NCBI GenBank assembly: GCA_035510635.1
Contig: DATKGU010000001.1
Coordinates: 649 to 64,648 of the forward strand
Reading direction: 5' to 3'
Length of the DNA: 64,000 bases
DNA from: Minisyncoccota bacterium
GTDB lineage: Bacteria; Patescibacteriota; Minisyncoccia; Phycocordibacterales; SBAW01
Both the position numbers and the translations under genes were made by a program. The notes beneath the pieces are model-generated. The model searched no databases. It was given only the letters and a program-made list of their open reading frames with translations, and was not told the DNA's origin. Within the stretch, counting starts at the first letter, position 1; each line of letters begins with the position of its first letter. Positions 1-27,445 of this stretch are shown here, in pieces.

Positions 1-524
1 TGCGCGACTTGGCGGCGACACAAATTCTCGAGAAATTTCCTGAGGCGCCTGAACGTAAACCTGACCATAAGGTTGTCGGCCAGTGCGACGATTACCTCAA
101 ACGGTTATTCAGCTATTGCTATGAGCTTGCAAAAAAGTTGAAGCCGTTACATGGGGAGATTGAAGATCTGGGGGTTGAGTTTATGGAACCCCTCGACTTG
201 TTAATGGACATCGCAGCGGGGAAAGAAGACGCTTCGGACTTGTTTACTGAAAAGTTTGGAGGTCTAAGAATAATCAGTTTGCAAGTGATGGCGTTGCGGC
301 TCGGAAAGTTGAGGAAAGACCTCAAGCCAAAACAAGATTATCTTAATTTAATTGCGGCACACATTGTCCCCGAACTTCATCGGCGCATTCCCGATGCCGG
401 CAAATGTTCGCGCGTGGCGGTCACATCTGATTGGTCGGTTATTGCCGTTGAAGACGAGCAATTAAAAGATATATTGCAAAAGGGCCCCGCAAGCGTGTTC
501 GCTATTTTCACACGTAAACATTAG
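1..524 (+). CDS. hypothetical protein (5' end probably outside window; TTG at 9 is only a possible start)
   Basis: Frame is open to position 1. No recognisable motifs. Sits where rpsJ would normally precede rplC but is not S10. Confidence 0.45.
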   Translation, partial: RDLAATQILEKFPEAPERKPDHKVVGQCDDYLKRLFSYCYELAKKLKPLHGEIEDLGVEFMEPLDLLMDIAAGKEDASDLFTEKFGGLRIISLQVMALRLGKLRKDLKPKQDYLNLIAAHIVPELHRRIPDAGKCSRVAVTSDWSVIAVEDEQLKDILQKGPASVFAIFTRKH

Positions 525-6263: not shown

Positions 6264-6818
6264 ATGCCTAAATTAATTCAAGAACAACAGCAAACCGCGT
6301 TTGACGCACTCAAAGGAGAGTTTGGGTGGACCAACCGCATGCAGGTGCCTAAGCTCCAAAAGGTGGTTATCTCCGTGGGCGTAGGCAAAATGGCCAAAGA
6401 CAAAAACAAAGTCGAGTTGGTGGCCGACCGCCTTGCAAAAATTACCGGTCAAAAGCCTGCCGACCGCGGCGCTAAAAAGTCTATCGCAACGTACAAAACA
6501 CGCATCGGCGACAAAATTGGCTACCAAATTACGCTCCGCGGCAAGCGCATGCAAGATTTTCTTAACCGCCTCATCCACATTGCGCTCCCGCGCACCAAAG
6601 ACTTTAAAGGCATCGGGGCGAAAGGCATCGATGCGATGGGCAACTACACGCTCGGCATCAAAGAGCACATCGTCTTCCCCGAGACAGCCGACGAAGACAT
6701 CAAAGACGTCTTTGGCATGGCCGCAACCGTGGTAACGACTGCCAAAAACCCTAAAGAAGCAAAAGCATACCTAACGCACCTCGGTTTTCCGTTTAAGAAG
6801 GACGTTTCGCAAAAATAA
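6264..6818 (+). CDS. rplE: 50S ribosomal protein L5
   Basis: L5 family, conserved position. Confidence 0.95.
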   Translation: MPKLIQEQQQTAFDALKGEFGWTNRMQVPKLQKVVISVGVGKMAKDKNKVELVADRLAKITGQKPADRGAKKSIATYKTRIGDKIGYQITLRGKRMQDFLNRLIHIALPRTKDFKGIGAKGIDAMGNYTLGIKEHIVFPETADEDIKDVFGMAATVVTTAKNPKEAKAYLTHLGFPFKKDVSQK

Positions 6819-6942
6819 CGTTTCGTCCCTTAGTTAAAGGAGATTCTAGATTTCGACTTGGATGGTTGCAGTTGACTCCTGGGGTACCATTTTGGGAGAC
6901 TATTTACATATTCTAGTTAAAAAGTAGGGTCATATAGATTTG

Positions 6943-6971
6943 CCGCCTAGCATTGAGTCAGGCGGCTTTTT
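6943..6971 (+). terminator. intrinsic terminator (gccgcct/aggcggc stem plus ttttt) after rplE
   Basis: 7-bp GC stem, 11-nt loop, T-run. Not expected inside a contiguous spc operon, so it marks an island boundary. Confidence 0.6.
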
Positions 6972-7162
6972 CCATTCCATAGACAATGAGGAGTGTTAAT
7001 TTTTGTTGTCCCCATCCACACCCCAACTCCACCTCGTATTAAAAAGTGGGGTATTATTACTACGGTAGCTCGCATCTTTGAGAGCTATCACGTTCTTACA
7101 ATTGAATATCAGCGAGTAGCCTAAACCATCGAGCGTTCGGTGGCATGGTGAAAGCGAAAAAT

Positions 7163-7262
7163 GTCCAGTTAGACATAAAAAACCCATCATGGGAATGTCT
7201 AACTGGCCGTACCGGGAAACTGGTACGGGAGGTTTCGGCCTCCACCCGTGGTGGGCTTTTTG
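7163..7262 (+). promoter_or_regulatory. structured leader with four consecutive hairpins, the last a terminator-like stem plus T-run 7 nt before the start codon
   Basis: 12-bp perfect stem ccagttagacat/atgtctaactgg (7165-7206), then ccgtacc/ggtacgg, gagg/cctc, ccacc/ggtgg followed by ctttttgctttc and ATG at 7268. Confidence 0.45.
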
Positions 7263-7267
7263 CTTTC

Positions 7268-10200
7268 ATGAATAAATATTTCTTTCGCAATATTTCAATA
7301 AAAATCGTAGCTTCGTGGGCAACCGTTATTTTCGTGTTCGCAACATTACTCTGCTCTCCATCGGCCGCCTTAGCCATTAGCTATACACCGGGCCAAACAC
7401 TCAACCCAGCGTGTACACCCACTGACCCAACCTGTGTAGTTACTTCAACCACCAATCAGGCGGCAATATTTGTCGCCACTTCTACAACGGCTACCTCCAC
7501 TTTTGCAGGCAATGTTTCAGTCTCTGGCAATGTAGCCATCGGCAGCCTATCCGGTATCCTCAAAGCAGTAACCGGTGTTGTAACAACGGCACTTGTTAAC
7601 CTCTCTGGCGATGTCACTGGAATTCTCGGTATCAGTAATGGTGGCACTGGCACTTCAACTTCGCCAACTTACGGAAAAATATTGGTGGGCAATGGCTCGG
7701 GTGGTTACAACCTCATGGCCACTTCATCGCTCGGAATTGTTACTTCATCTGCAGTATATGCGACAAACTACGGCGTTAAATGCGATGGCGTGACCGATGA
7801 CACGGCAGCAATGCAAGCCGCAGCGAATACGGGTCGGGTTGTTATGTATCCGGCCGGCGTGTGTAAGTTCTCGACATTGGTCATCTCATCCGGTGGCATC
7901 ATCGGCGAAGGTGAGATGGTCCTTCCAGGGAGTTCCCCAAATCTTATTCCTGGCGGTACGGTATTGTTGTCGACTGATACAGGAAGTGGAAATACTATTT
8001 CTTATGTAGCCGACTGGAGTACCGGTAACCCCGGCGTATTTCGTAATTTTTCGCTATTGCCAAGCTCGGGTACGGTCCAAAAGTCCGGCGGCGTAGGTAT
8101 TTATATTAGCGGCAATGTCAGCGGCGACGGATATGTAAACAATTATACAGCAGTCGATAATATATTAATCCGTTACTTTCCCACCTCGATATCACTTCAG
8201 GACTCAGCTGCCTGGACTATCTCAAATAGTAATTTTCTTTTCTATAGAGTCGCTGGCATTGCTGCGGGTAACTTAATTGCCCCCGACCAAGGCGACTCTA
8301 GCATTTATGCGACCACTCTTTTCAATGGCAATGGAGGTGAGTGGGCGACAGAAGGTTCCGGAATCCTCCAGACTTCGAGCGGTGGCCTAAAGATTTCGGA
8401 TACAAAATTTAATGGTGGAAAATATGGCTACCAATGGGCGCAAGCAGGGCAGACCTCCGACACGTTGATTTCAAACAGCAGTTTTGAGAATATCTCAACG
8501 GCAGCTGTCGATTTTCAGAATACAATCAATACATCGGGCTCACCTGTCCGTTTTACCAATATAAAAATCACTGGAAATCAGTTTGCCGGCGACAACCGCG
8601 ATATTTATCTGGAGCCTATTTCACAATATTTGGGCTCATCTTATTGGGACAACATTGTTATATCCGGAAATACTTTCTATCTTGCGACTCTCAGCTCCAT
8701 CGAGCTAGACACGGCTCGAGAGTTTACGATCGTCGGGAATACCATAAATGGTAATTACTCTACACCGGTAGGTATTTTGATTGCATCGTCTGATGATGCT
8801 ACAGGATTTGTAGGAGCAAACAATATTTCCGGTGTCGGCACGGCGGTTGTAAACAATAGTGCCACAGTAACCGTCAGTTCCAGCAACAGTGCCGTTGGGG
8901 CTTTTAATGTTTCTGGTACGGGTGCTGCGTATCAGCTCTTTGGAAATACTGCCTTGTTCGCGAGCACCACAAACTCTTCGCTTGCCGTTGGCGCGCCTGA
9001 AGCTGCTGGCTGGATGACCGCATCTTCGTCTCCCCAATGGCGCTCGATTGCTATCGGCGCTGGTGCACTTGCCACTACTCCAATCAACAGTGCAGCAACC
9101 AAAAACATCGCTGTAGGATACAACGCACTCAATGCCAACACTTCGGGTTTTTGGAATACCGCCGTAGGAGATAGTGCGCTTAACTCCAACACCTCCGGCA
9201 TACTCAATGTTGCGACCGGAATGAATGCACTTAATGCTAATACCACTGGTGGCTATAATGTCGCGACTGGCTTTCAAGCTCTCTACACGAACACCACCGG
9301 TAGTGACAATGCAGCGGTAGGGTATAACGTCCTTAATAATAACCTAACCGCTGCAAATACCGTTGCAATAGGTTTTAGTGCGGCAGTAGGTTCGGGCAGC
9401 TATTCAAACCAAGGTGGTGTTTATATTGGTTACCAGGCAGGCGATCAGGTCCAAACGGGCTCCGACTACAACACCATCATCGGTTATAATGCCGGCTACG
9501 CTCTGACTACTGGCGCGCGCAATATTCTTATTGGTCAGTCCACTATTCCGACTTCTTACAATCAGGTCAAAACTGGCTCAAAGAACATATCAATTGGTAA
9601 TGATGTGGCAGTTGCATCTTCAACCGCATCCAACCAACTCGACATTGGCAACTTCATTTATGGAACAGGCTTGAGCGGCACTGGGGCGAGCGTCTCACCC
9701 GCATACATCGGATTCGGTACCACCACCCCATATGCTTCTCTCGAAGTTTGGGGCTCCACCAACACGGGTTCAACCACAGTCTTCTCGGTCGTGAGCAGCG
9801 CCTCCACTACACTCTTCTCCGTTTCTGCAAACGGATACGCCACCCTTCAAAACTCCCTCTACCAAAGCTCAGACCAACGCCTCAAAACTGACATTACTAC
9901 TCTGGATGCATCATCTTCTCTTGCTGCATTGTTAGCACTTACTCCTGTTTCCTATACCCGCATCGACCAGCCTGAGCTTGGTACTAACTTAGGATTCATT
10001 GCCCAACAGGTGCAACAAATCTTCCCTGAACTTGTCTCTACCAGCTCACCAACAGCTCTTACCCCTGACGGTACACTTACACTCAATTACACAGGCCTTA
10101 TTGCTCCGATTGTGAAAGCGATACAAGCGATTGCAAGTGAGATTGTTTCTATTCAAAATACGATTGCGGGGTTTGCCAATAGTTTTACAACCAAACAACT

Positions 10201-10591
10201 TTGTCTTACCGACAGTTCAGGGACAACTTGTTATACTCGTTCTCAGCTTAATGCAGTAGTTGGAAATGCTGCAACGCCCTCCGTCCAAATCAGCACCCCA
10301 ACCACCCCCGTCATCTCAACCACCACCCCTCCCACCATATCTATCCAAGGCCAAAATCCAGCCACCATACACGTCGGCGACACTTACACCGACTTGGGAG
10401 CTCTTGTCACCGACAATCAAGGCCACCGCCTGGGTTACACCACCTACCTCAATGGCACACTGGTATCAACTCTCACGATTGATACAAGCACTACAACAAC
10501 TGACACCATAGACTATGTAGCAACCGACACGTGGGGCAACACAGCAACCTCCACACGCACCGTGATAATTGCCCCAGTCTCTTCCCAGTAA
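7268..10591 (+). CDS. secreted tailspike/tail-fibre-like surface protein (1107 aa): signal peptide, pectate-lyase-like beta-helix, N-x-A-V/I-G repeat region, peptidase S74 intramolecular chaperone domain, C-terminal Ig-like (DUF5011-like) domain
   Basis: N-terminal hydrophobic signal (MNKYFFRNISIKIVASWATVIFVFATLLCSPSAALA). YGVKCDGVTDDTAAMQAAANTG matches the pectate_lyase_3/tailspike hallmark. Long runs of NTAVGYNALNANTSG-type repeats. SDQRLK...GFIAQQVQQIFPELV matches the S74 chaperone-of-endosialidase signature. C-terminal ~230 aa are near-identical to the 27815-30433 paralog. ATG 7268 preferred over track start 7145. Confidence 0.8.
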   Translation: MNKYFFRNISIKIVASWATVIFVFATLLCSPSAALAISYTPGQTLNPACTPTDPTCVVTSTTNQAAIFVATSTTATSTFAGNVSVSGNVAIGSLSGILKAVTGVVTTALVNLSGDVTGILGISNGGTGTSTSPTYGKILVGNGSGGYNLMATSSLGIVTSSAVYATNYGVKCDGVTDDTAAMQAAANTGRVVMYPAGVCKFSTLVISSGGIIGEGEMVLPGSSPNLIPGGTVLLSTDTGSGNTISYVADWSTGNPGVFRNFSLLPSSGTVQKSGGVGIYISGNVSGDGYVNNYTAVDNILIRYFPTSISLQDSAAWTISNSNFLFYRVAGIAAGNLIAPDQGDSSIYATTLFNGNGGEWATEGSGILQTSSGGLKISDTKFNGGKYGYQWAQAGQTSDTLISNSSFENISTAAVDFQNTINTSGSPVRFTNIKITGNQFAGDNRDIYLEPISQYLGSSYWDNIVISGNTFYLATLSSIELDTAREFTIVGNTINGNYSTPVGILIASSDDATGFVGANNISGVGTAVVNNSATVTVSSSNSAVGAFNVSGTGAAYQLFGNTALFASTTNSSLAVGAPEAAGWMTASSSPQWRSIAIGAGALATTPINSAATKNIAVGYNALNANTSGFWNTAVGDSALNSNTSGILNVATGMNALNANTTGGYNVATGFQALYTNTTGSDNAAVGYNVLNNNLTAANTVAIGFSAAVGSGSYSNQGGVYIGYQAGDQVQTGSDYNTIIGYNAGYALTTGARNILIGQSTIPTSYNQVKTGSKNISIGNDVAVASSTASNQLDIGNFIYGTGLSGTGASVSPAYIGFGTTTPYASLEVWGSTNTGSTTVFSVVSSASTTLFSVSANGYATLQNSLYQSSDQRLKTDITTLDASSSLAALLALTPVSYTRIDQPELGTNLGFIAQQVQQIFPELVSTSSPTALTPDGTLTLNYTGLIAPIVKAIQAIASEIVSIQNTIAGFANSFTTKQLCLTDSSGTTCYTRSQLNAVVGNAATPSVQISTPTTPVISTTTPPTISIQGQNPATIHVGDTYTDLGALVTDNQGHRLGYTTYLNGTLVSTLTIDTSTTTTDTIDYVATDTWGNTATSTRTVIIAPVSSQ

Positions 10592-10614
10592 GTGACTTGA
10601 TATATCAAGTCACT
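10591..10614. repeat. perfect 24-nt palindrome agtgacttgatatatcaagtcact at the gene junction
   Basis: Overlaps the stop codon of the preceding gene. Possible hairpin or operator. Confidence 0.5.
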
Positions 10615-10623
10615 ACAAAATCA

Positions 10624-11418
10624 ATGAAAACTTTTGTATTAAGTAGCATCACCTTTCTTGTACTTCTCTCTAGTGCAAGCATTGCTTTGGCCTCCACCGG
10701 CACCATCGACCCCACCAACCACTACGCTTGGAGCGACAACGGAGGCTGGGTCAACTGGTATGCCACTGGAGGGAATGTACAAGTAACAGACACCGCACTC
10801 ACTGGCTACATCTGGTCTGCCGGCTTTGGCTGGATTAACCTTGCTCCTACCAATGGAGGAGTACTTAACACCGGAGGCTACCTCAGTGGCTATGCCTGGG
10901 GAGCCAGCACCGGTTGGATTAGCTTCCTTGGTGTCACCATCGACCAACAGGGCGTCTTCCATGGACACACCGTGGCACAAAACATCTTTGGCACCATGAC
11001 CTTTGACTGTGATAACTGCAAGGTCACCACTACGTGGAGACAGGGAAGCACAAACACAAACACAGGCGGTGGTGGCACAGTGAGTGGCCCTCTTGCGGTG
11101 GGGTATACCAACCCTTCGACAGGCTCATCACAAGCCACCACCTCAACTAAACCTCTGCCTCCAACCCTCATACCCACCTCCAAACCCTCTACCATTCCAC
11201 AACCCACCTCTAAACCACCCTCTTCATCTAAGAGCCCAACCTACACCACTCAAACACCTCTTGTCCCCGTATTTCCAACGAATAATGTAAAAACAAATAC
11301 CAAAGGCGGCAACGCAACCCCACCTTTCACTCCTGCATCTGTTGCTCCAAGCTGCACGTGGTTAACTTGCTGGTGGCAATCAATAATTGGATTCTTTGCA
11401 CGGTTGTTTGGGAGGTAA
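10624..11418 (+). CDS. secreted repeat protein with Pro/Thr-rich linker and C-terminal hydrophobic anchor (264 aa)
   Basis: Signal peptide MKTFVLSSITFLVLLSSASIALA. Three G-W-containing repeats (GWVNWY / GFGWINL / STGWISFLG), a PT-rich stretch, and C-terminal CTWLTCWWQSIIGFFARLFGR. ATG 10624 preferred over 10531. Confidence 0.6.
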   Translation: MKTFVLSSITFLVLLSSASIALASTGTIDPTNHYAWSDNGGWVNWYATGGNVQVTDTALTGYIWSAGFGWINLAPTNGGVLNTGGYLSGYAWGASTGWISFLGVTIDQQGVFHGHTVAQNIFGTMTFDCDNCKVTTTWRQGSTNTNTGGGGTVSGPLAVGYTNPSTGSSQATTSTKPLPPTLIPTSKPSTIPQPTSKPPSSSKSPTYTTQTPLVPVFPTNNVKTNTKGGNATPPFTPASVAPSCTWLTCWWQSIIGFFARLFGR

Positions 11419-11627
11419 ATATCAAAGGGTATCATCACTGAGGAGGAATTTACAGCAAAGAAAAACAATTACTCGGCATTTAAGTTTGGGTGGTCTACCC
11501 ATATACCATTAAAGACCGACCAGCTTGCCTTGTAGAAAGGTTCTCTAGGCGTCTAGGGACGTTTCTGATGATGGAGAACGGTGGGGTATGTGGTTTCCTT
11601 CAACCCGCAATCTAATTCTTCTTCTGT

Positions 11628-11680
11628 GAGGGGATTTTATATTTTTATGCCACAAAAATAGTGGTGTAGTAAATCCCCTC
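11628..11680. repeat. 10-bp inverted repeat gaggggattt / aaatcccctc (33-nt spacer) in the intergenic region
   Basis: Seen directly in sequence. Nearby tgcaggtttatatgcaggt direct repeat at 11717-11740. Confidence 0.4.
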
Positions 11681-11945
11681 CAAAAATGCTTTTGTTCGAG
11701 CCATTTTTATATGGTCATTTTTCATGTATCTGCAGGTTTATATGCAGGTACCTAGAAGTATTTGCAACATTTTTTTGGACAAGTCAAATTGCTGTGCTAC
11801 TGTCGAGGAGTCTTGAAGAAAAAAGTCGAAAACAAGGTTCCTGAGATTGAGCTTGAGTGTACACGAGCTTTCGATCTCCTGTTTAAACTTTTAATCGGCA
11901 CGGACGAAAACGAACAAAAGCCCTTATAAAGTAAAGATAATTGTT

Positions 11946-12131
11946 ATGGATAAAAACTATAAGCATCCGTGGCTCTGTCGCGGGTGTGGGGCGAAGTTGA
12001 AGTGGCCGCTGGTGGTCAAAAGCATTTTTGGAAACGGTTGGGTTTGTTTTGGGTGCCAAGTCAAGGAGTGCATAAACGGTGATTTTATTCGCGGGCACGA
12101 GAGAGGGAAAAACATCCCTCCCCGAACATGA
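11946..12131 (+). CDS. small Cys-rich zinc-ribbon-like protein (61 aa)
   Basis: CRGCGAKLKW...CFGCQVKEC gives two CxxC pairs. First gene of a 3-gene overlapping (translationally coupled) module. Confidence 0.5.
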   Translation: MDKNYKHPWLCRGCGAKLKWPLVVKSIFGNGWVCFGCQVKECINGDFIRGHERGKNIPPRT

Positions 12132-12394
12132 GCGCTGGGCGCGGTGTGCGTTCCAGCTGGCTTGAACACAAATTGGACGAGTTGATGCACGACATCAAAG
12201 CATACGCGGAGGCCCATTCGGAAGCGTGGTGGATTTATAGCACGGACATCGAGATGCAATACGCCGAAGGCGACTACGTACAGTTGTGGGACGAACTTGA
12301 GTGGATGCGGGGCAATGTCAAAAATCCAGCGTTTCGAAATATGTTGACCGAGGCGCTGGAGTTAATAAAAGCAATAAATATCGAGTATGAGTGA
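12128..12394 (+). CDS. hypothetical acidic protein (88 aa)
   Basis: 4-nt start/stop overlap with both neighbours. No recognisable motif. Confidence 0.45.
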   Translation: MSAGRGVRSSWLEHKLDELMHDIKAYAEAHSEAWWIYSTDIEMQYAEGDYVQLWDELEWMRGNVKNPAFRNMLTEALELIKAINIEYE

Positions 12395-13055
12395 TGACTG
12401 CGGAGTGCCGCCACTCTTTCCGGGTTTTAGGCCGGAGGACTTCACAAAGGCGTTCTTCAAATATCCGAGGGTGCTGGAGCAGTACTGGCACGTCATGACG
12501 AACAGCGAGGCCAAGGTGCTCACGTTCCTGCTCCGCATGCTTCCGGGTTTCCAAAAAACACAGGATGCTGTGAGCCTGAGCCAGTTCATGGGTGGCGTCG
12601 GCTCCCACAACAAGGGTACGGGTATCAGTCGCACACAGGTTCGGCGGGCAATCGAAGGTTTAGAGGAAAAAGGGTTCATAATCCGAACGCGCCAGCCAGG
12701 GCGGTCGACGGTGTACCGTCTTCGCTACACCGAAGGATTGGCGGTCGAAACTGTGCCAGTGAAAGAAGCTCCCTTGGAGATTCAACGCCTTATACGGCTC
12801 TTCATGCCGGTCGCCGAGCATCGCGTAGAGACCTACCTACAGGACAGGACGCAGATTAAGGCAATCGAGCGGCTGGTTGAGTACTACGGCGTTGAAAAAG
12901 TTGAGGCCTACATCAACACTCTGCCGACGATTCATGGAAAGCGCTTTATGCCGGTCATCACGTCGCCGGTAGAGCTTGAACAGAAACTGCCGAAGTTGGC
13001 TGACGCTATAAAGCGGCGACGAGGCGAAGAGGGGAACAGTCAAATGCTGTTCTGA
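12387..13055 (+). CDS. winged-helix DNA-binding protein, phage replication-organiser/regulator-like (222 aa)
   Basis: SEAKVLTFLLRM...GISRTQVRRAIEGLEEKGFIIRTR looks like a wHTH. Lies in the phage-like module upstream of the serine recombinase. Confidence 0.5.
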   Translation: MSDDCGVPPLFPGFRPEDFTKAFFKYPRVLEQYWHVMTNSEAKVLTFLLRMLPGFQKTQDAVSLSQFMGGVGSHNKGTGISRTQVRRAIEGLEEKGFIIRTRQPGRSTVYRLRYTEGLAVETVPVKEAPLEIQRLIRLFMPVAEHRVETYLQDRTQIKAIERLVEYYGVEKVEAYINTLPTIHGKRFMPVITSPVELEQKLPKLADAIKRRRGEEGNSQMLF

Positions 13056-13355
13056 CCATGCCCATGCAGGGCACAGCAGCCGGTGCACTGCTTGGGCACA
13101 CACCGGGTACAAAAGTATGCACGCCTACCGTGTCCATGCCACAAACAGAACAATAGTTAATAGAACAATAGAAATTAACAATACTGGTTGAGCTTTTTCT
13201 GGAAAGGAAAAGCTGGAAAAGGAAAGTCGGGCATCATCAGTTTCAGAATGTCCGCACACTGTCCGACTTTTTCTTCGCCAGCAAATGCGCCTGTTCCGCG
13301 TCCAGTAGTTCCAACAGTTTACAACTGCTAACAGCCAATTATTATCAGCCAAATA

Positions 13356-13506
13356 ATGAATGACATCGAAGCACTGCGAGACTACATCATTGCCGACGAG
13401 ATACATCGTATCCAATCGCTGTCACACGAGGAGTTAGTGCGTGAGCTCGTCGAACTCAGTTCTCGGGAGATTGAAAAAATGACTGACTCCCAACTCTTGA
13501 TTAAGT
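13356..13506 (+). CDS. possible small ORF (50 aa) immediately upstream of the recombinase gene
   Basis: ATG 13356 to TAG 13504 (MNDIEALRDYIIADEIHRIQSLSHEELVRELVELSSREIEKMTDSQLLIK). Below the ORF-track length cut-off. Candidate Xis/RDF-like or regulator, speculative. Confidence 0.25.
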
Positions 13507-13527
13507 AGAACCCCCACAAGACCATAA

Positions 13528-15273
13528 ATGAAATTAGATAACTCACAACCTAAAAAAGAACTTCGAGCGGCGATCTACCTTAGAGTGTCGACCTTAGCCC
13601 AGTCCGAGGAGGATGCTTACGGCCTCGATGTGCAGGAGGAAAGAGCTCGTAAGTTTTGCACCTCGCAGGGGTACCTCCTCGATGAAGCTCACCTCTATAC
13701 CGACAAAATTTCCGGAGGTACACGACCGGAGGAACGTGAGGGATTATCCAAACTACTGGCCGCTGCCGAGAGAGGGGAGTTTGACTGCATGCTGGTCTAC
13801 AAAATTGACCGCGTTGCCAGAAACCTAAAAATTTTCCTTGGCATTGTTGAGCAGCTGCTGGCACTTAAACTTATCTTCCGCTCTGTCACTGAGCCAATCG
13901 ACACCTCAACCCCGATCGGGGAGATGGTGATGCAAATTTTGGCAATGTTTGCTCAATTTGAGAGAGGCATGATTCGAGACCGCACTATGAGCGGTCGAAT
14001 ACAAGCTGCCAAACATGGTTCTTGGGTGGGAAGCGTGCCTCCGTATGGGTACATCCTTAATAAAACCACCCGCAGGTTGGAGATTAATCCAAAGGAGGGG
14101 AAAATCGTGAAGCAAATATTTAAGTGGCTGGTGGATGACAAGTTGGCCGTCCACGAAATTGAGCGACGACTAAATGCAATGCAGGTGCCGGCACCATGGT
14201 CGACTAAAATTAGTACCAAAGAAACACAAAACGTTTGGCGCAAGTTCAGTGTAATAAGAGTCTTGGTCAATGAAGTACACACTGGCACCTTTTACTACCG
14301 CAAGTTCCGCAAACCGTTTAATGGCTTGACCAGCATTACTGACCCCAGCCGACTACGGCCGAGAGAGGACTGGATAGAGCAACATTGCGACCCCATTATC
14401 ACGACCGAGATGTACGAAGCGGCAAAGCGTCAACTTACACACAACCGAGAGTTTGCCCGACGCAACCGCAAGCATGAGTACCTATTCTCCAAAATCATCT
14501 ATTGTAGTGGGTGCAAACACAAAATGTTCGGTGGATTCCAGCCCGCTAGGGAAGAGTGGGGATACCAAGGTGGTCGGTACTACCACGGTGTGTATCGTAA
14601 GGACGATGCGCTAGGCAAGACAGCGCGATGCCAGTGGTGCCCCAACTACTCCGAGGCACGGCTTGAGCCGGTATGGGACTGCCTTAAAGATATATTAAAG
14701 AACCCGAAGAACATGACACGGCCTTTGGAGAAATATATACATAAGGAAAAAGACCCCCTGCCGGTCAAGCAGCGGCTTCAGGATATTGATACAGCCTTGG
14801 ATACCATAAGCAGAAAACGTGACCGTGTGGACGCGCTCTATATAAATGAGCAACTGGATGAGCAAAAGTACAAGGCCTATCAGGTCGAGTTCAAGCAAGA
14901 CGAACAGCGGCTTAGGGATGAGCAAACGCACCTCCGACAGACCTTGTTAAGCAAGCGAGAGGTTGCTGACCGCCAGAAAGCGGTGCAGCGCGCATACGAA
15001 CAAGTCAAAGCTCGGCTTGATGCCGTTACCTACGACGAGAAAGCTAAAATCGTCTCATACTTCGTTGAGCGCATCACTCTGCACGCCAAAGAGAACTATG
15101 CGGAGGTGGTGTTCAGATTCTCCAAAGGCACAGACATAGGTACCGTAGCTACCTTGCAAGGAGACAAAGCCTTCCCGCTGGTGCACAAAATCAACACCAT
15201 CCCCGAGAGGGAGCGGAGAGCCACTCTCATGGCAACGAACCCCGAGATGTTCGTGTCGAAGGTGCTGGTGTAA
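13528..15273 (+). CDS. large serine recombinase (phage integrase/transposase-type, 581 aa)
   Basis: N-terminal resolvase catalytic domain (AAIYLRVSTLAQ..., VYKIDRVARN), recombinase domain, Cys-containing zinc-ribbon region (CSGCKHK...CQWC), coiled-coil C-terminus. Confidence 0.9.
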   Translation: MKLDNSQPKKELRAAIYLRVSTLAQSEEDAYGLDVQEERARKFCTSQGYLLDEAHLYTDKISGGTRPEEREGLSKLLAAAERGEFDCMLVYKIDRVARNLKIFLGIVEQLLALKLIFRSVTEPIDTSTPIGEMVMQILAMFAQFERGMIRDRTMSGRIQAAKHGSWVGSVPPYGYILNKTTRRLEINPKEGKIVKQIFKWLVDDKLAVHEIERRLNAMQVPAPWSTKISTKETQNVWRKFSVIRVLVNEVHTGTFYYRKFRKPFNGLTSITDPSRLRPREDWIEQHCDPIITTEMYEAAKRQLTHNREFARRNRKHEYLFSKIIYCSGCKHKMFGGFQPAREEWGYQGGRYYHGVYRKDDALGKTARCQWCPNYSEARLEPVWDCLKDILKNPKNMTRPLEKYIHKEKDPLPVKQRLQDIDTALDTISRKRDRVDALYINEQLDEQKYKAYQVEFKQDEQRLRDEQTHLRQTLLSKREVADRQKAVQRAYEQVKARLDAVTYDEKAKIVSYFVERITLHAKENYAEVVFRFSKGTDIGTVATLQGDKAFPLVHKINTIPERERRATLMATNPEMFVSKVLV

Positions 15274-15285
15274 AAAAGCTGAATT

Positions 15286-15606
15286 TTACTCCGAGTCTTT
15301 CCTCCGCTGAATAGCACGTAGCACCGTAGCGGCTACAAAATCTTTGCGTGCCTCTCCCAATACGGGCAACGCAGCCAGTACAGACGCATTGTTTGTTGGG
15401 AGTAAGTCCACTTTTCCTTCGTTGTAGTTAGTAAGTTGCGTCAGGAACTCATCGAGCCACGATGGTGTTACGGTGAGCACTTCGTCAAAGTCGATTTGGA
15501 TCGCCTCATCAGGATTAAGTTGCGGACGGATAGCATTAAATGCCTCTAGCCCTGCTGGACGAGAAACAAGTACGGAGCCAAATTTTTTAAGTTGAATGGT
15601 TTGCAT
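15286..15606 (-). CDS. STAS-like (DUF4325-type) anti-sigma-antagonist-fold protein (106 aa)
   Basis: Small alpha/beta protein, IDFDEVLTVTPSWLDEFL similar to the SpoIIAA/RsbV phosphorylation loop. Adjacent to and co-oriented with the GHKL ATPase gene. Confidence 0.6.
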   Translation of the reverse strand: MQTIQLKKFGSVLVSRPAGLEAFNAIRPQLNPDEAIQIDFDEVLTVTPSWLDEFLTQLTNYNEGKVDLLPTNNASVLAALPVLGEARKDFVAATVLRAIQRRKDSE

Positions 15607-15618
15607 ATCTAACGTGTC

Positions 15619-16344
15619 TTAAAATAGTATAACAGCATATGTGCCACGGATATTTCCGTCAGTCATCTTAATGTGCATCAATCCGGGGCCGGTAGGGATG
15701 TTAACGAGGCCGATGCCCGAACGGAACAAGAGTCCAATTTCCTTTGACTCTACAACATTGCGGACCACTTTGAGTCCGTTGCCACGCTTCTCCGGGTTTC
15801 TTCCCGAAACAATTTCCGTAAACGCTACCGTTAGAGCATCGACATCGGTAGTAAGATTTGGTCGCACTTGTTGGAGTGTTGCTTTTACGCCACGTCCGCG
15901 GTCTGCAAGAACTATCACCCGCTTTGCAATGTCATATGCATAAAATACACCTGGCACATCAGGCCAGTTACCAACGTTGTGTGCGAAAGAGTTATCGCCA
16001 ATTTCTGCTGCAACCAGTGTGAGGAGCGATGCTAAGTCTTCGGGCATATGCCCCGTTTTCTGCAATTCTATCCCCATCTTAGCCACTCGACTGGTGAAGC
16101 GATCTGGTCGTTCGCAATAATATTCACTTGGAAGTGCTGGCGGTATGGCGCTTGTTGCCCATGCTAATCCAAGCATCTGAAGGTCGAGAGCAAAACTATT
16201 AAGGTCTCGTAGAGCATAATAGCGGTGCTTTCCTCCACTCCGTTCAGCACGAAGCTTCCCGGATTTCTCCCAGTTGCGTAGGGTTTGAACGGATACATTA
16301 AGTATCTTTGCCGCCTCACCTATGCGTACTTTTCCAGTATTCAC
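15619..16344 (-). CDS. excisionase/MerR-type HTH fused to GHKL (anti-sigma-factor-kinase-like) ATPase (241 aa, GTG start)
   Basis: N-terminal IGEAAKILNVSVQTLRNWEKSGKLRAERSGGKHRY resembles HTH_17/excisionase. Bergerat-fold boxes EIGDNSFAH (ExxxNxxxH), ADRGRGV (DxGxG), RGNGLKVV (GxGL). Confidence 0.75.
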   Translation of the reverse strand: MNTGKVRIGEAAKILNVSVQTLRNWEKSGKLRAERSGGKHRYYALRDLNSFALDLQMLGLAWATSAIPPALPSEYYCERPDRFTSRVAKMGIELQKTGHMPEDLASLLTLVAAEIGDNSFAHNVGNWPDVPGVFYAYDIAKRVIVLADRGRGVKATLQQVRPNLTTDVDALTVAFTEIVSGRNPEKRGNGLKVVRNVVESKEIGLLFRSGIGLVNIPTGPGLMHIKMTDGNIRGTYAVILF

Positions 16345-16362
16345 CCTGTCAGATTAGGGTCA

Positions 16363-16396
16363 AAACCTATAAAAGTCAAGATTTGTTTATAGGTTT
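16363..16396. promoter_or_regulatory. palindromic operator AAACCTATAAA-N12-TTTATAGGTTT, 19 nt upstream of the HTH-GHKL gene
   Basis: Perfect 11-bp inverted repeat. Half-site TAGGTTT recurs in a second palindrome and again at 17821-17831. Confidence 0.6.
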
Positions 16397-16426
16397 ATGT
16401 GTAAAACTTACAAAAACAGCCCTTAT

Positions 16427-16451
16427 TGTAGGTTTAACAGGGAAACCTACA
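16427..16451. promoter_or_regulatory. second operator palindrome TGTAGGTTT-N7-AAACCTACA
   Basis: 9-bp inverted repeat sharing the TAGGTTT half-site. Confidence 0.55.
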
Positions 16452-16625
16452 ACCACTGAAATGGCCTTACTATGGGTTCTAAAATTGAGACTTTGGAGGT
16501 CATAATCTTAAAGAGCCGATTCTGTATGGATATTTGTTGGGTTTTGCTATCCTCCTTTCCTAAAAGGAGGAACACAAAAACTCCCAGGGTGTTTTAGCGG
16601 AACAACTGCCAAGAAGTAAAATAAC

Positions 16626-16659
16626 AAAAAAGCTCGGATTTCAATCCGAGCTTTTTTGT
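16626..16659. terminator. bidirectional intrinsic terminator aaaaaagctcggatt tcaa tccgagctttttt
   Basis: 9-bp stem flanked by A-run and T-run. Confidence 0.65.
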
Positions 16660-16695
16660 GATATCGTCTGTGGCGGAACTGTATAGGAGCACCAC

Positions 16696-16908
16696 ATGAG
16701 CGGATATCGAGGCGTCGAGCTTGATTTTGGCGCATATAATTGGCCTCAAAATCGGGTCGAGTTTGACTTGGTGGCGTCGCAAGGCAGCAGATCGGGTTGC
16801 GCCACGACAACACCCCGCACAACCTTTAAGCCCGCGGCGCATGTCACTCCAAGGTTTCGCAAGCGGGACAAGAAGTCCACCAGCGTCGGTAAGAAGAGAA
16901 AGAAATAA
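16696..16908 (+). CDS. possible small basic protein (70 aa)
   Basis: ATG preceded by AGGAG at -8, unlike core genes here that lack SD. C-terminal KR-rich tail. No family recognised. Confidence 0.3.
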   Translation: MSGYRGVELDFGAYNWPQNRVEFDLVASQGSRSGCATTTPRTTFKPAAHVTPRFRKRDKKSTSVGKKRKK

Positions 16909-17096
16909 GGAGAGAGGCCAAAGCGACCCAGGATTATTCCGGTGTCGCTTTTTTAAATGTTGGACCTGCGAGGTCGAACAATTCTCCATATTTTAGAGGG
17001 CTAAAATAACCTTATTAAACAAGGGTCTTGACGACTTGACAAATCTATTGCTTTAACATATAATAGGTAGGAAAGCTCATTCAAAGGAGAGAGCAG

Positions 17097-17600
17097 ATGT
17101 TTCTAAGCTGGAAGTTCAATGAGGAAAAAGAACCTCGTGGGTGGGTTGAAAGGTTCACCAACGGCACTGGTCCTGACACTAAAAAAGAAATACAGCGGAG
17201 ACGACACCTACTTGAAAACGAACGTCCACCGTATCGTGTATACACAGTTGAATGGATGGATACTGATGCAACCATCTGGACTATCGAAAAGTGGTATGTG
17301 AAGGAAGTTACCCTCGCATACATTCTGAAGAAAAATGGTGAGCCTATCACTGGTGGTGGCACCATCCACTTGCCCCGCTTTGTGTATAAATATCCAGATG
17401 GAAAAACGGGTGAGGTGATAATGGAGACATACGCACTTATCCCGTCTTGGTTAGAGATAGAGCCCTTTAAAGGTCAAACCATGATCTGGGGTTTGCGTAC
17501 TGATGGCACTCGCCGCGATGCTGGAAATATATGTGAAAATTTCCTTTGCCAAGAGGTGGCTAAGGACGACAACCTTCACCCTGTTGTGAGATTGGGCTAG
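17097..17600 (+). CDS. hypothetical protein (167 aa)
   Basis: Strong SD (aaggagag) 8 nt upstream. No recognisable motifs. Last gene of the island. Confidence 0.5.
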   Translation: MFLSWKFNEEKEPRGWVERFTNGTGPDTKKEIQRRRHLLENERPPYRVYTVEWMDTDATIWTIEKWYVKEVTLAYILKKNGEPITGGGTIHLPRFVYKYPDGKTGEVIMETYALIPSWLEIEPFKGQTMIWGLRTDGTRRDAGNICENFLCQEVAKDDNLHPVVRLG

Positions 17601-17742
17601 TAGAACACTTGACTGAACTGTAAAGTCTAAATGTAATACAGATCTTTTTCTCTCTTGTCATAACGCCGGAGATTCCGGTATCGGAAATAAAGCCCACCGC
17701 AAGGTAGGGCTTTCGTATTTATGGGGAAGAAGATTATATAGT

Positions 17743-17800
17743 TTGACTTATGGGAGCTAATCGCTTATATTGCTCGTAGCCCTCAAGGGCTCCTTTTTTC
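17743..17800 (+). promoter_or_regulatory. promoter TTGACT-17-TATATT followed by hairpin agccc/gggct plus T-run, upstream of rpsZ
   Basis: Hexamers 17743-17748 and 17766-17771, hairpin 17777-17791 with ccttttttc. An orphan copy of the TTTATAGGTTT half-site lies at 17821-17831. Confidence 0.45.
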
Positions 17801-17891
17801 TAGACGGTGCCGCTTAGTCCTCCTTTATAGGTTTGGGCGAGGCATACCTCCAGAATCATAACCCCGGGGTTACGGGGTGCATCACTCACAT

Positions 17892-18077
17892 ATGGCAAAA
17901 AAGTCTACAGTAGCACGCTCAAACCGCGCACCCAAGTTTAAATCTCGGGTGGTTAATCGTTGCTTCCGCTGTGGTCGCAAGCGCGCCTTTATGCGCGACT
18001 TTGGCATGTGCCGCGCCTGCTTCCGCGAAGCCGCAAATGAAGGATTGATCCCTGGTGTCAGAAAGTCATCTTGGTAA
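17892..18077 (+). CDS. rpsZ: 30S ribosomal protein S14 type Z (zinc-binding, 61 aa)
   Basis: CxxC...CxxC motif (CFRCGRK...CRAC), typical short S14. ATG 17892 preferred over track 17877. Confidence 0.93.
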
Positions 18078-26299: not shown

Positions 26300-27445
26300 A
26301 TGACAAAAACAAGACCAAAAGGACCTTTTAATCTGCCCAAACTTCCTCCCAAGGTATCCTATGCTGACATTGTTGAGCATATTGCTAAGGCGCACACAGC
26401 ACTCGCCCGTCTTGATGAAATGTTGAAGCATATGGGGAATCTATCTCACCTAGAGAGCACCTTTTTTACTCGCGAAGCAGTGTTGAGTTCTAAAATAGAA
26501 GGGACTCAAGTAACACTTGAAGATGTCCTTAAAGAAGAAGCTGAAGGAAAAAAAGAAGTTAACGAAAATACCGAAAGGCAGCGGGATATTGTTGAAGTTC
26601 TAAACTACAGGAGGGCTCTTCGTCTCGGTCTAAAAATGATTGGGGAAGGGGAGTCCCTTGCTGAAAATAACGTAAAAGAGCTTCACAAAATTCTCTTGCA
26701 ATCTGAAAGAGGAAGGACAAGAGCACCCGGGCAATTTCGTAGAGAGCAAGTATATATAGCACCAAAAGGTACGCCTATGGACGAGGCGCGATATATACCC
26801 CCGAGCCCAAATGATATTTCGGAACTGTATAGCAATTTTGATCGGTATCTCAATACGGAAAATGCTGAGCGAGATCCCCTCGTTCAAATTGCAGTGGCAC
26901 ACTATCAATTTGAAGCTATTCACCCATTTAAAGATGGGAACGGGCGTGTCGGCAGATTATTGATACCCCTTTTTCTCTATAAAAGAAAGATTATTGCTCA
27001 TCCTTTTATTTATATAAGTAAGTACTTTGAGGAACACAGACGTGATTATTACGATTTATTGGCCGACGTAAGCTATGAGAGGGCGTGGACAGCCTGGATA
27101 CGGTTTTTCCTACATGGGCTTTGTGAACAAGCCAATGAAGCTACTGAGCTTGGGAGGGCAATTATCAAATTGCGGGATGAGTACCGGTCTCACTTGGCCG
27201 AGTTACACTCGACCTATGCTTTTAATCTCCTTGATGCAATTTTTGAGAGACCATATTTCACCCCGGTCCTTATAGGCAAATTGGCTCATATTAAGAATCC
27301 CCAAACGGTATTAACGTTGATTGGTAAATTTTTAGAGGCTAAAATTATTACTGACTTAACTCCAAAGAAAAAACGCAATAAAATATATGAATTTCATCAC
27401 CTCACAAAGTTATTGCAAGGAAGAGATAAAAAAGGCTCAGACTAA
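26300..27445 (+). CDS. Fic/DOC family protein (AMPylation or related transferase)
   Basis: Canonical Fic motif HPFKDGNGRVGR. AT-rich gene and upstream region with aattag/aattcc repeats. Confidence 0.9.
   Translation: MTKTRPKGPFNLPKLPPKVSYADIVEHIAKAHTALARLDEMLKHMGNLSHLESTFFTREAVLSSKIEGTQVTLEDVLKEEAEGKKEVNENTERQRDIVEVLNYRRALRLGLKMIGEGESLAENNVKELHKILLQSERGRTRAPGQFRREQVYIAPKGTPMDEARYIPPSPNDISELYSNFDRYLNTENAERDPLVQIAVAHYQFEAIHPFKDGNGRVGRLLIPLFLYKRKIIAHPFIYISKYFEEHRRDYYDLLADVSYERAWTAWIRFFLHGLCEQANEATELGRAIIKLRDEYRSHLAELHSTYAFNLLDAIFERPYFTPVLIGKLAHIKNPQTVLTLIGKFLEAKIITDLTPKKKRNKIYEFHHLTKLLQGRDKKGSD

Follow-up and report, generated by a model that had tools for sequence, protein, structure and literature searches.

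A helix-turn-helix kinase and STAS protein gene pair of Patescibacteria as a possible mobile, autoregulated conflict-type cassette

To our knowledge, the bacteria of the candidate phyla radiation (CPR, or Patescibacteria) have tiny genomes, and few defence or regulatory systems specific to them have been described. In a stretch of 64,000 nucleotides from a Minisyncoccota bacterium (GenBank assembly GCA_035510635.1, contig DATKGU010000001.1; the whole stretch is hereafter called the window), a two-gene operon encodes a predicted GHKL kinase fused to a helix-turn-helix (HTH) domain, followed by a small protein with a STAS fold. The two genes lie beside a large serine recombinase and inside a ribosomal protein operon, and a first-pass annotation of this DNA had suggested for them either a phospho-regulated excision switch or a conflict or defence module. 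The question that this locus raises is what a kinase that is tied both to a DNA-binding domain and to a STAS partner does in such a place. We propose, with a probability of about 0.5, that the pair is a self-contained, horizontally mobile and autoregulated kinase-substrate cassette of the kind formed by the kinases CapK and VapK with their substrates CapS and VapS (Chambers et al., EMBO J 2026, PMC13373217), that it is of the conflict or addiction type, and that it is carried here as cargo of a recombinase element.

The kinase-STAS pair and its operators

The first-pass annotation had read the kinase as an excisionase/MerR-type HTH fused to a GHKL domain of the anti-sigma type, and profile and alignment data bear this out (Table 1). 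The N-terminal domain matches MerR (E 1.1e-13), MerR_1 (4e-10), HTH_17 (1.8e-9) and TIGR01764 (1.6e-6), and the structural matches of residues 1-52 are TnrA, MerR proteins, mycobacteriophage Xis, BldC and RdfS. Across 55 aligned relatives at 25-50% identity the three Bergerat motifs are invariant, i.e. the N box (E114, N118, H122), the G1 box (D148-x-G150-x-G152) and the G2 box (R187-G188-x-G190-L191). The best structural matches of the kinase domain are RsbW, SpoIIAB, UsfX and SiaB, and phrog_3364, a phage protein family of unknown function, also matches this domain (E 9e-8). When the kinase domain and the STAS protein were searched by sequence against PDB chains, nothing apart from the HTH was matched, and neither NCBIfam nor PADLOC holds a family for the GHKL domain or for the STAS partner. 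By the models of PADLOC-DB 2.0, neither protein is assigned to a known anti-phage defence system; a link to MADS through PADLOC matches to mad1 and mad2 was rejected, mad1 being a generic regulator and mad2 a methyltransferase.

The STAS gene starts 12 nt from the kinase stop codon. Its product had been described as STAS- or antagonist-like, in agreement with structural matches to RsbV and SpoIIAA and with a profile match to VapS (see the last section); its C-terminal helix comprises residues 90-105, and no HTH match was found in the protein. The segment T47-P48-S49-W50-L51-D52-E53 is invariant and stands at the N-terminus of the helix formed by residues 48-61. SpoIIAA-type proteins carry their phosphorylated serine at the same place, the start of a helix; S49 (or T47) is the predicted phospho-acceptor of the STAS partner.

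Upstream of the kinase gene two perfect palindromes, with spacers of 12 and 7 nt, had been noticed. Both are exact, the N12 palindrome being formed by the first two and the N7 palindrome by the last two half-sites of an array of five, of which the imperfect one in the middle had been missed. The N12 palindrome has no second copy in the window (0 expected by chance); the heptamer TAGGTTT occurs 11 times in the 64 kb, four of them inside 90 bp, and a search of the whole window found paired sites confined to the promoter of the pair. The proximal half-site sits within the spacer of a promoter-like site, straight after the -35 hexamer TTGACT. The hexamers of this site were read from the sequence, and a consensus promoter scan did not call the TTGACT/TAATCT pair. 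The weak -10 hexamer is 6 nt away from the GTG start codon, and because the start follows it so closely, the kinase-STAS mRNA is probably leaderless or nearly so.

The same layout of half-sites is found upstream of relatives from many lineages, in which the last half-site always comes right after the -35 hexamer TTGACT. The half-site itself varies (TATAAGTTT, TGTAAGTTT, AGTAGGTTT, CCTAGGTTT, TATAGATTT), and all the copies within one locus change together. In a distant subfamily (about 48-50% identity) the array is replaced by three direct repeats, TGCATAGATTT or GGGTAGATTT, about 21 nt apart, the last of which overlaps the -35 region. The class of operator covaries with HTH residues 14, 20, 24, 26, 34 and 40, and tracks the HTH motifs QTLRNWEK, DTLRRWDK and NTLRRWDE, along with the change of Q40 to H. 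Half-sites reach a density of 12 per kb in the upstream 220 nt, against 0.29 per kb elsewhere in the loci. Relatives that lack the HTH were used as a natural control for this association: an 8-mer repeated at least three times upstream was present in 14 of the 47 HTH-bearing relatives and in 0 of the 25 HTH-less ones (Fisher p = 0.0011). The covariation within loci, the tracking of operator class with the HTH, and the density together with the natural control tie the operators to the HTH, and make it very probable that the HTH-kinase autoregulates its two-gene operon, presumably as a repressor.

A second operator downstream of the STAS gene was also considered and rejected, since the matches at about +1.06 to +1.14 kb are isolated, unpaired near-matches. 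A further copy of the half-site near rpsZ, which the first-pass annotation had placed at 17821-17831, is present as the exact 11-mer TTTATAGGTTT a few positions away (Table 1); its chance expectation is 0.024 per window. Upstream of this lone half-site are a promoter-like TTGACT-17-TATATT (17743-17771) and a terminator-like hairpin (17778-17791).

Table 1. Features of the kinase-STAS locus in the window, and content of the cargo slot in sister elements
Feature	Position	Strand	Remarks
Kinase gene	15619-16344	-	241 aa; GTG start (16342-16344); HTH fused to GHKL kinase
Kinase HTH, MerR/excisionase-type	residues 7-51; 16192-16326	-	Pfam and NCBIfam matches
Kinase linker, family-specific	residues ~55-100		invariant W62, C77, D81, F83
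Kinase Bergerat-fold domain	residues ~100-241; 15622-16047	-	RsbW/SpoIIAB-type fold
STAS-fold (DUF4325-like) partner gene	15286-15606	-	106 aa
Operator array	16363-16452		five half-sites TTATAGGTTT, alternating in orientation; spacers N12, N7, N12, N7
Half-sites of the array	16363-16373, 16386-16396, 16404-16413, 16426-16435, 16443-16452		16404-16413 imperfect
Promoter-like site	16351-16379	-	-35 TTGACT 16374-16379; 17-nt spacer; weak -10 TAATCT 16351-16356
Lone exact 11-mer half-site TTTATAGGTTT	17824-17834	+	58 nt upstream of rpsZ ATG
Large serine recombinase	13528-15273	+	581 aa; convergent with STAS gene, tail-to-tail, 12-nt gap
RepO-like winged-helix protein	12387-13055	+	conserved element module
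Short open reading frame (ORF) of element module	13356-13508		between RepO-like gene and recombinase
Conserved non-coding element	16510-16662	+	long hairpin with CCTCCTTT/AAAGGAGG; conserved single-stranded stretch; own terminator
Cargo slot, L170/L171			NYN-domain protein
Cargo slot, L172			OLD-family nuclease
Cargo slot, L173-L176			100-aa protein and Schlafen/AlbA_2-HATPase_c_4 protein (SLFN_AlbA_2/HATPase_c_4)
Cargo slot, L177			Bub operon and HigB-like/Peptidase_M78
Cargo slot, L178			nothing
Cargo slot, L179			DUF2188 and HigB-like/M78
Cargo slot, L180			DUF4411/M78
Cargo slot, L181			unannotated small genes
Cargo slot, L182			SocA_Panacea pair

Distribution, gene neighborhood and transfer of the pair

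The kinase-STAS pair is almost restricted to CPR/Patescibacteria, and a scan of 185,579 species genomes yielded only 185 confirmed stretches. In a collection of 5.8 billion proteins the kinase has 1301 relatives at E <= 1e-3, the best 120 of them at 69-96% identity, and the relatives of the STAS partner behave like those of the kinase; the C-terminal kinase domain alone occurs in 279 representative clusters among 1.84 billion proteins. The kinase exists in two architectures, one of about 240-255 aa that includes the HTH and one of about 190-200 aa that lacks it. A literature search returned no paper on this kinase-STAS family in CPR.

The survey of the gene neighborhood covered 80 genome loci of species representatives; a CPR lineage is named in most of their records. 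In every locus with enough contig the STAS gene lies directly downstream of the kinase gene. The census, which the first-pass annotation had put forward as a check, thus found the pairing invariant, and linkage to a recombinase not conserved (5 of 80). In 80 loci of the wider family from metagenomes, among them HTH-less kinases of ~190 aa, the strict two-gene unit holds in most, and neighbor clustering of the genome and metagenome loci yielded no conserved third gene. The commonest neighbor clusters of the 80 genome loci were Fic (9), TrmB-like (6), ABC ATPase (6), extracytoplasmic function (ECF) sigma factor (5) and rplE (4). Among 142 immediate neighbors in these loci no Pfam family occurs more than three times; matches to restriction-modification, AbiEii, methyltransferase and helicase families are scattered, and PIN is not among the 25 most frequent families. 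Fic was rejected as a component of the system, given that it is found in only 9 of the 80 loci and at a variable distance; the window itself encodes a Fic/DOC protein (Fic_N + Fic) at 26300-27445 (+), 10 kb from the pair. Genes for AlkD-like, YgjP-like, RecQ and LexA/DinB proteins stand near some loci; a link to DNA repair is not claimed, as it would be anecdotal without a background set.

These data can be read as a physiological partner switch, in which the kinase would be an anti-sigma or other anti-factor and the STAS protein its antagonist; the two would govern an unlinked sigma factor or regulon according to energy or stress, and the HTH would provide only feedback. The structural matches of both proteins agree with such a switch, an ECF sigma factor is encoded within 10 kb in 5 of the 80 loci, the extreme conservation of the two proteins would fit contact with conserved cell machinery, and the existence of HTH-less versions implies that DNA binding is dispensable for the core function. 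However, the census of the 80 genome loci revealed no conserved nearby sigma factor or PP2C phosphatase, and no phosphatase cluster; a pair present in only 185 stretches of so many species genomes, whose operator occurs in the 64-kb window only at its own promoter, fits such a switch poorly. The recent horizontal transfer indicated by synonymous sites (see below), and a profile match to SpoIIAB and RsbW that is much weaker than that to VapK and CapK, also speak against it, and we regard a partner switch of this kind as unlikely.

The variable neighbors raise a different possibility, namely that the pair controls adjacent cargo in the manner of CapK/CapS, so that a signal such as DNA damage would turn on the neighboring operon. 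CapK and CapS likewise adjoin many different operons (PMC13373217). The gene downstream of the pair is co-directional in 51 of the 75 loci with a called downstream gene, and within about 40 nt in 19, and the immediate neighbors include some restriction-modification, AbiEii and methyltransferase genes. Nevertheless, about two-thirds of co-directional genes is what gene order would give anyway, most of the genes directly downstream encode ordinary enzymes or lack annotation, and no second operator was found past the STAS gene. In the window and in an Adlerbacteria genome (locus L010) the downstream gene is convergent, which excludes co-transcription. Control of adjacent cargo seems to us quite improbable.

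In the window, the ribosomal protein operon is broken by 11 kb between rplE (6264-6818) and rpsZ (ATG at 17892), and the pair lies within this break; in L010 it also lies between rplE and rpsZ. The window and L010 share a cassette of 1.23 kb (15286-16517) with 91% DNA identity, whereas the flanking ribosomal genes are 68-72% identical; at third codon positions the identity is 0.82-0.84 for the pair and 0.49-0.59 for rplE, rpsZ and rpsH. One boundary of the similarity coincides exactly with the STAS stop codon, and the other is at 16517, ~170 nt upstream of the kinase start. Since the third-position identity is far above that of the flanks, the cassette shares a much more recent ancestor than the surrounding chromosome, which points to a discrete unit that was recently transferred or replaced horizontally.

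In related CPR genomes, insertion or variation recurs at the rplE-rpsZ junction: it spans 11 kb in the window (6818-17892) and 2.8 kb in L010 (9636-12462), it is also seen in L036, and in L170 and L172 it is occupied by serine-recombinase elements with differing cargo. The gene comM (Mg_chelatase), or fragments of it, adjoins the pair in L007/L008 (5549-7126) as well as several sister recombinase elements, and may be a second integration hotspot.

The recombinase element and its cargo slot

The neighboring recombinase had been taken to be divergent from the pair; it is actually convergent with it (Table 1). It is 100% identical to a protein annotated from a metagenome-assembled genome of a Candidatus Paceibacterota bacterium, and its homologues at 53-82% identity delimit an element family with the gene order RepO-like protein, short ORF, recombinase. 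Sister elements are located in the rplE|rpsZ gap (L170, L171, L172) and beside comM fragments (L173-L176, L178-L180). In tblastx comparisons with L170 and L172, the similarity extends through the recombinase to 15273, is nil over 15274-16510, and returns at 16510-16627 and again upstream of rpsZ. The first of these returns falls in a conserved non-coding element whose counterparts are at 8962-9079 in L170 and 9466-9585 in L172, and whose terminator sequence differs per genome. A search of 16510-16662 against Rfam gave only a weak, terminator-driven match to Thr_leader; the element may be a small RNA or an end of the mobile element.

We defined the cargo slot as the interval between the 3' end of the recombinase and the conserved element at 16510. 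Judged from the sister elements, the pair fills what reads as a swappable slot, which in those elements mostly holds genes of toxin-antitoxin or defence type (Table 1). Nine sister elements do without the pair; the recombinase therefore works without it, which argues against a role as a recombination directionality factor (RDF) and for a conflict-type accessory.

The excision switch proposed in the first-pass annotation would make the pair a phospho-regulated RDF for the neighboring large serine recombinase. Besides the adjacency of the recombinase to the STAS 3' end in the window, this idea draws on a small resolvase next to the pair in L065 and on three loci of one lineage (L030, L031, L032), where kinase, STAS protein and recombinase form a three-gene unit with inverted repeats. 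The window and these loci are, however, the only five of the 80 with an adjoining recombinase, 75 having none within 10 kb, and the recombinase of L030-L032 is of another family than that of the window (E about 1e-11). L010 keeps the pair without a recombinase, the sister elements carry other cargo, and the HTH-less relatives retain the kinase-STAS pairing. As a general function the switch appears very improbable, and the pair is no excision factor dedicated to the recombinase; the idea may apply to the L030-L032 lineage.

In the latter, Nomurabacteria-like loci, a serine recombinase of 515-528 aa, encoded on the same strand, starts 2-20 nt past the STAS stop codon, and the kinase-STAS-recombinase unit is flanked by inverted repeats of 52 to 114 nt that are perfect or nearly so (L032, 1-52 and 2627-2678; L030, 2160-2273, 4757-4870 and 8223-8320; L031, contig ends). 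One arm lies within the 3' end of the recombinase gene, and the repeat is where the contigs break; the unit is possibly invertible or bounded by the inverted repeats. Around the recombinase and the pair of the window, no convincing att-like direct repeats or inverted repeats were found. In L173-L176 the signature of a diversity-generating retroelement (bAvd + RVT_1; 686-2093) lies upstream of the sister recombinase element.

Other features lie in the same break of the ribosomal operon. A perfect consensus promoter, TTGACA-17-TATAAT (17036-17064, +), precedes an ORF of 167 aa (17097-17600) that has no match in Pfam, NCBIfam, PADLOC or PHROGs, and the segment 17036-17600 has no counterpart in L010, L170 or L172. 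A LOOT RNA (RF03000; 7118-7243, +; 76.7 bits against a gathering threshold of 46.4) overlaps the start of an ORF at 7145-10591 (+). The 1148-aa product of this ORF shows tail-fibre/tail-spike PHROG matches, a Peptidase_S74 intramolecular chaperone and an Ig-like domain, and is followed by a Thr/Pro-rich protein of 295 aa (both within 7145-11418, +); these two proteins are either phage-derived or a surface adhesin.

Proposed function and comparison with known systems

The mechanism that we propose has steps of unequal strength. The kinase HTH, probably as oligomerizing dimers, would very likely bind the five-half-site array over the -35 region and the spacer and so repress the operon. Phosphorylation of the STAS partner by the GHKL domain, at S49 (or T47) where the second helix of the partner begins, is rather likely; the fold, the invariant catalytic motifs and the alignment to the region of CapS S54 and VapS S48 speak for this step. 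More speculatively, a stress or infection signal might alter the activity of the kinase, and the phosphorylation state of the STAS protein might switch its binding between the kinase and an unlinked target, and/or free the kinase from DNA; this step we hold only tentatively. From the mobility, the patchy distribution and the context of the cargo slot, we give about even chances to a role as an accessory module of the conflict, addiction or defence type, as opposed to housekeeping. The conflict or defence module of the first-pass annotation keeps, in this sense, the indirect support of a remote homology to VapK/VapS and CapK/CapS and of the company found in the cargo slot.

Several observations weigh against this proposal. 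The argument from the cargo slot is one of guilt by association, built on nine sister elements of which two have no annotated cargo, and in L010 the pair occupies the ribosomal gap without the recombinase element. The homology to VapK and CapK is remote, and was measured against single sequences, not family profiles. Of the profiles that the first-pass annotation had named, HTH_17 is matched, but the C-terminal half of the kinase reaches HATPase_c_2 only at E 0.076, and for both this family and DUF4325, matched by the STAS partner, the scores fall under the curated thresholds. The kinase model is of moderate confidence (predicted local distance difference test score, pLDDT, of 66) and poor near the ATP lid, Foldseek gave no significant match of the STAS model in the PDB, and the STAS partner is without a match in PADLOC, NCBIfam and PHROGs. 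The PADLOC-DB 2.0 matches of the kinase are generic HTH models (mad1 and the N-terminus of a methyltransferase). Neither a toxin nor an effector or phosphatase gene accompanies the pair, a scan of 2.9 million viral contigs yielded no relatives, and the high conservation (69-96% identity in the best 120 relatives) could equally mean a constrained cellular function.

A bolder form of the proposal is a minimal two-gene conflict system specific to CPR, complete in itself and serving anti-phage defence or element addiction. In it the DNA-tethered kinase would sense a DNA-associated or infection signal, and the STAS protein, switched by phosphorylation, would act in trans on a host target that is conserved; CapKS and VapKSC would have been elaborated from this effector-less core. 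We consider this possible, although doubtful; if true, it would assign DNA binding to the HTH of CapK-like kinases, which has so far been without explanation. In either form, the cassette of a kinase and its predicted substrate, tightly conserved and exchanged horizontally, offers a concrete candidate in CPR that is open to testing, for which the comparative data supply the operator, the likely phosphorylation site and the catalytic residues. Likewise, the serine-recombinase elements at the ribosomal protein operon or comM, with their swappable slot for defence or toxin-antitoxin genes, are a place to seek conflict genes of CPR.

In the systems described recently (PMC13373217), CapK is an HTH-STAS-GHKL kinase of 368 aa that single-stranded DNA (ssDNA) switches on, and whose own HTH has an unknown role. 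It phosphorylates CapS, a repressor made of a STAS domain and a winged HTH (wHTH), on S54. The palindromes to which CapS binds are of a 'wide' and a 'narrow' type, and adjacent immune operons, e.g. Bub and CBASS, are under its control. VapKSC comprises the STAS-GHKL kinase VapK, in which the STAS domain forms half of a predicted ssDNA groove, the STAS antitoxin VapS with a short C-terminal tail, and the PIN toxin VapC (PMC13373217). The sequences of these kinases and substrates were taken from the source data of the same paper and compared with our kinase and STAS family profiles, with SpoIIAB and RsbW sequences as controls. The kinase profile matched VapK with a probability of 77% (E 2.1e-5) over 142 columns that cover the whole GHKL domain, and CapK with a probability of 65% (E 5.9e-5) in an alignment that covers the GHKL part only, against about 1% (E 0.05-0.07) for the controls. 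The STAS profile matched VapS with a probability of 50% (E 1.6e-4), and the alignment places S49 on CapS S54, and T47/S49 next to VapS S48. The CapK GHKL domain and the CapS STAS domain themselves have no Pfam match at E <= 0.01, and CapS matches HTH_24; CapS and VapS-VapC structures are absent among the Foldseek matches in a PDB library with entries released up to 8 April 2026.

The likeness to VapKSC lies in the order of a GHKL kinase gene followed by a small STAS gene (~110 aa, with a short C-terminal helix), in an N box, E-I-x-x-N-S-F-x-H, that both share almost literally, VapK being the best match of the kinase profile, and in a conserved Ser/Thr at the start of STAS helix 2. In contrast to VapKSC, the pair has no VapC or other third gene, its kinase carries a MerR-type HTH and a 45-aa linker in place of the STAS domain, and the family is restricted to CPR, with promoter-overlapping operators that indicate autoregulation. 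The STAS half of the ssDNA groove is absent from the window kinase, and its invariant W62 resembles W68 of CapK by position only.

With CapK-CapS the pair has in common a kinase with an N-terminal HTH, a STAS substrate gene directly after it, palindromes of equivalent half-sites with two spacer lengths (N7 and N12 in the window, 'narrow' and 'wide' with CapS), autoregulated expression and variable neighbors. The difference is that in CapKS the DNA-binding repressor is the substrate, whereas the 106-aa partner consists of a STAS domain and one C-terminal helix, which leaves the kinase HTH as the sole candidate reader of the operators. The ~45 residues between HTH and GHKL leave no room for a STAS domain, and the convergent gene downstream in the window and L010 stands where CapKS has an adjacent immune operon; nor is any immune operon conserved downstream of the pair in the loci surveyed.

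Classical RsbW-RsbV and SpoIIAB-SpoIIAA pairs offer the best structural matches for both proteins and the same logic of a GHKL serine kinase and a STAS antagonist, and the N, G1 and G2 boxes together with a STAS antagonist are all found in the pair. It differs from them in that it has no sigma factor or PP2C phosphatase in cis, the ECF sigma factors of 5 loci being at variable positions, in the fusion of the kinase to an HTH, in being a mobile accessory cassette, and in its marginal profile similarity. Type II toxin-antitoxin systems resemble the pair as two-gene operons in which an HTH component appears to repress a palindrome-overlapped promoter, and in their patchy distribution, horizontal transfer and share of the slot, filled elsewhere by HigB, DUF4411 and Panacea modules; yet neither protein resembles a known toxin, and the HTH-less relatives have no DNA-binding component at all. 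To excisionases and RDFs (HTH_17, TIGR01764) the pair is linked by the fold of residues 1-52 and by the recombinase next to it in the window. It departs from them by the fusion of its HTH to a kinase, by persistence of the family without recombinases and consistent linkage to none, and by sites that lie over its own promoter and not at element ends.

The first-pass annotation had not recognized the pair as a described system. This stands for the architecture and the family themselves, which are not described by Chambers et al. (PMC13373217), but related kinase-STAS systems were described there in 2026. The pair shows the mark of the CapKS/VapKSC superfamily, namely a STAS gene directly after the kinase gene and, in the STAS protein, a conserved Ser/Thr where helix 2 begins; by this comparison the pair belongs to the same broad kinase-substrate class, while it departs from the defining architecture of each named system. 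It would extend the CapK/VapK kinase-STAS class to an architecture in which the kinase, and not the substrate, reads DNA, which could explain the HTH of CapK, and by profile comparison it is nearer to VapK/VapS and CapK/CapS than to the classical anti-sigma kinases.

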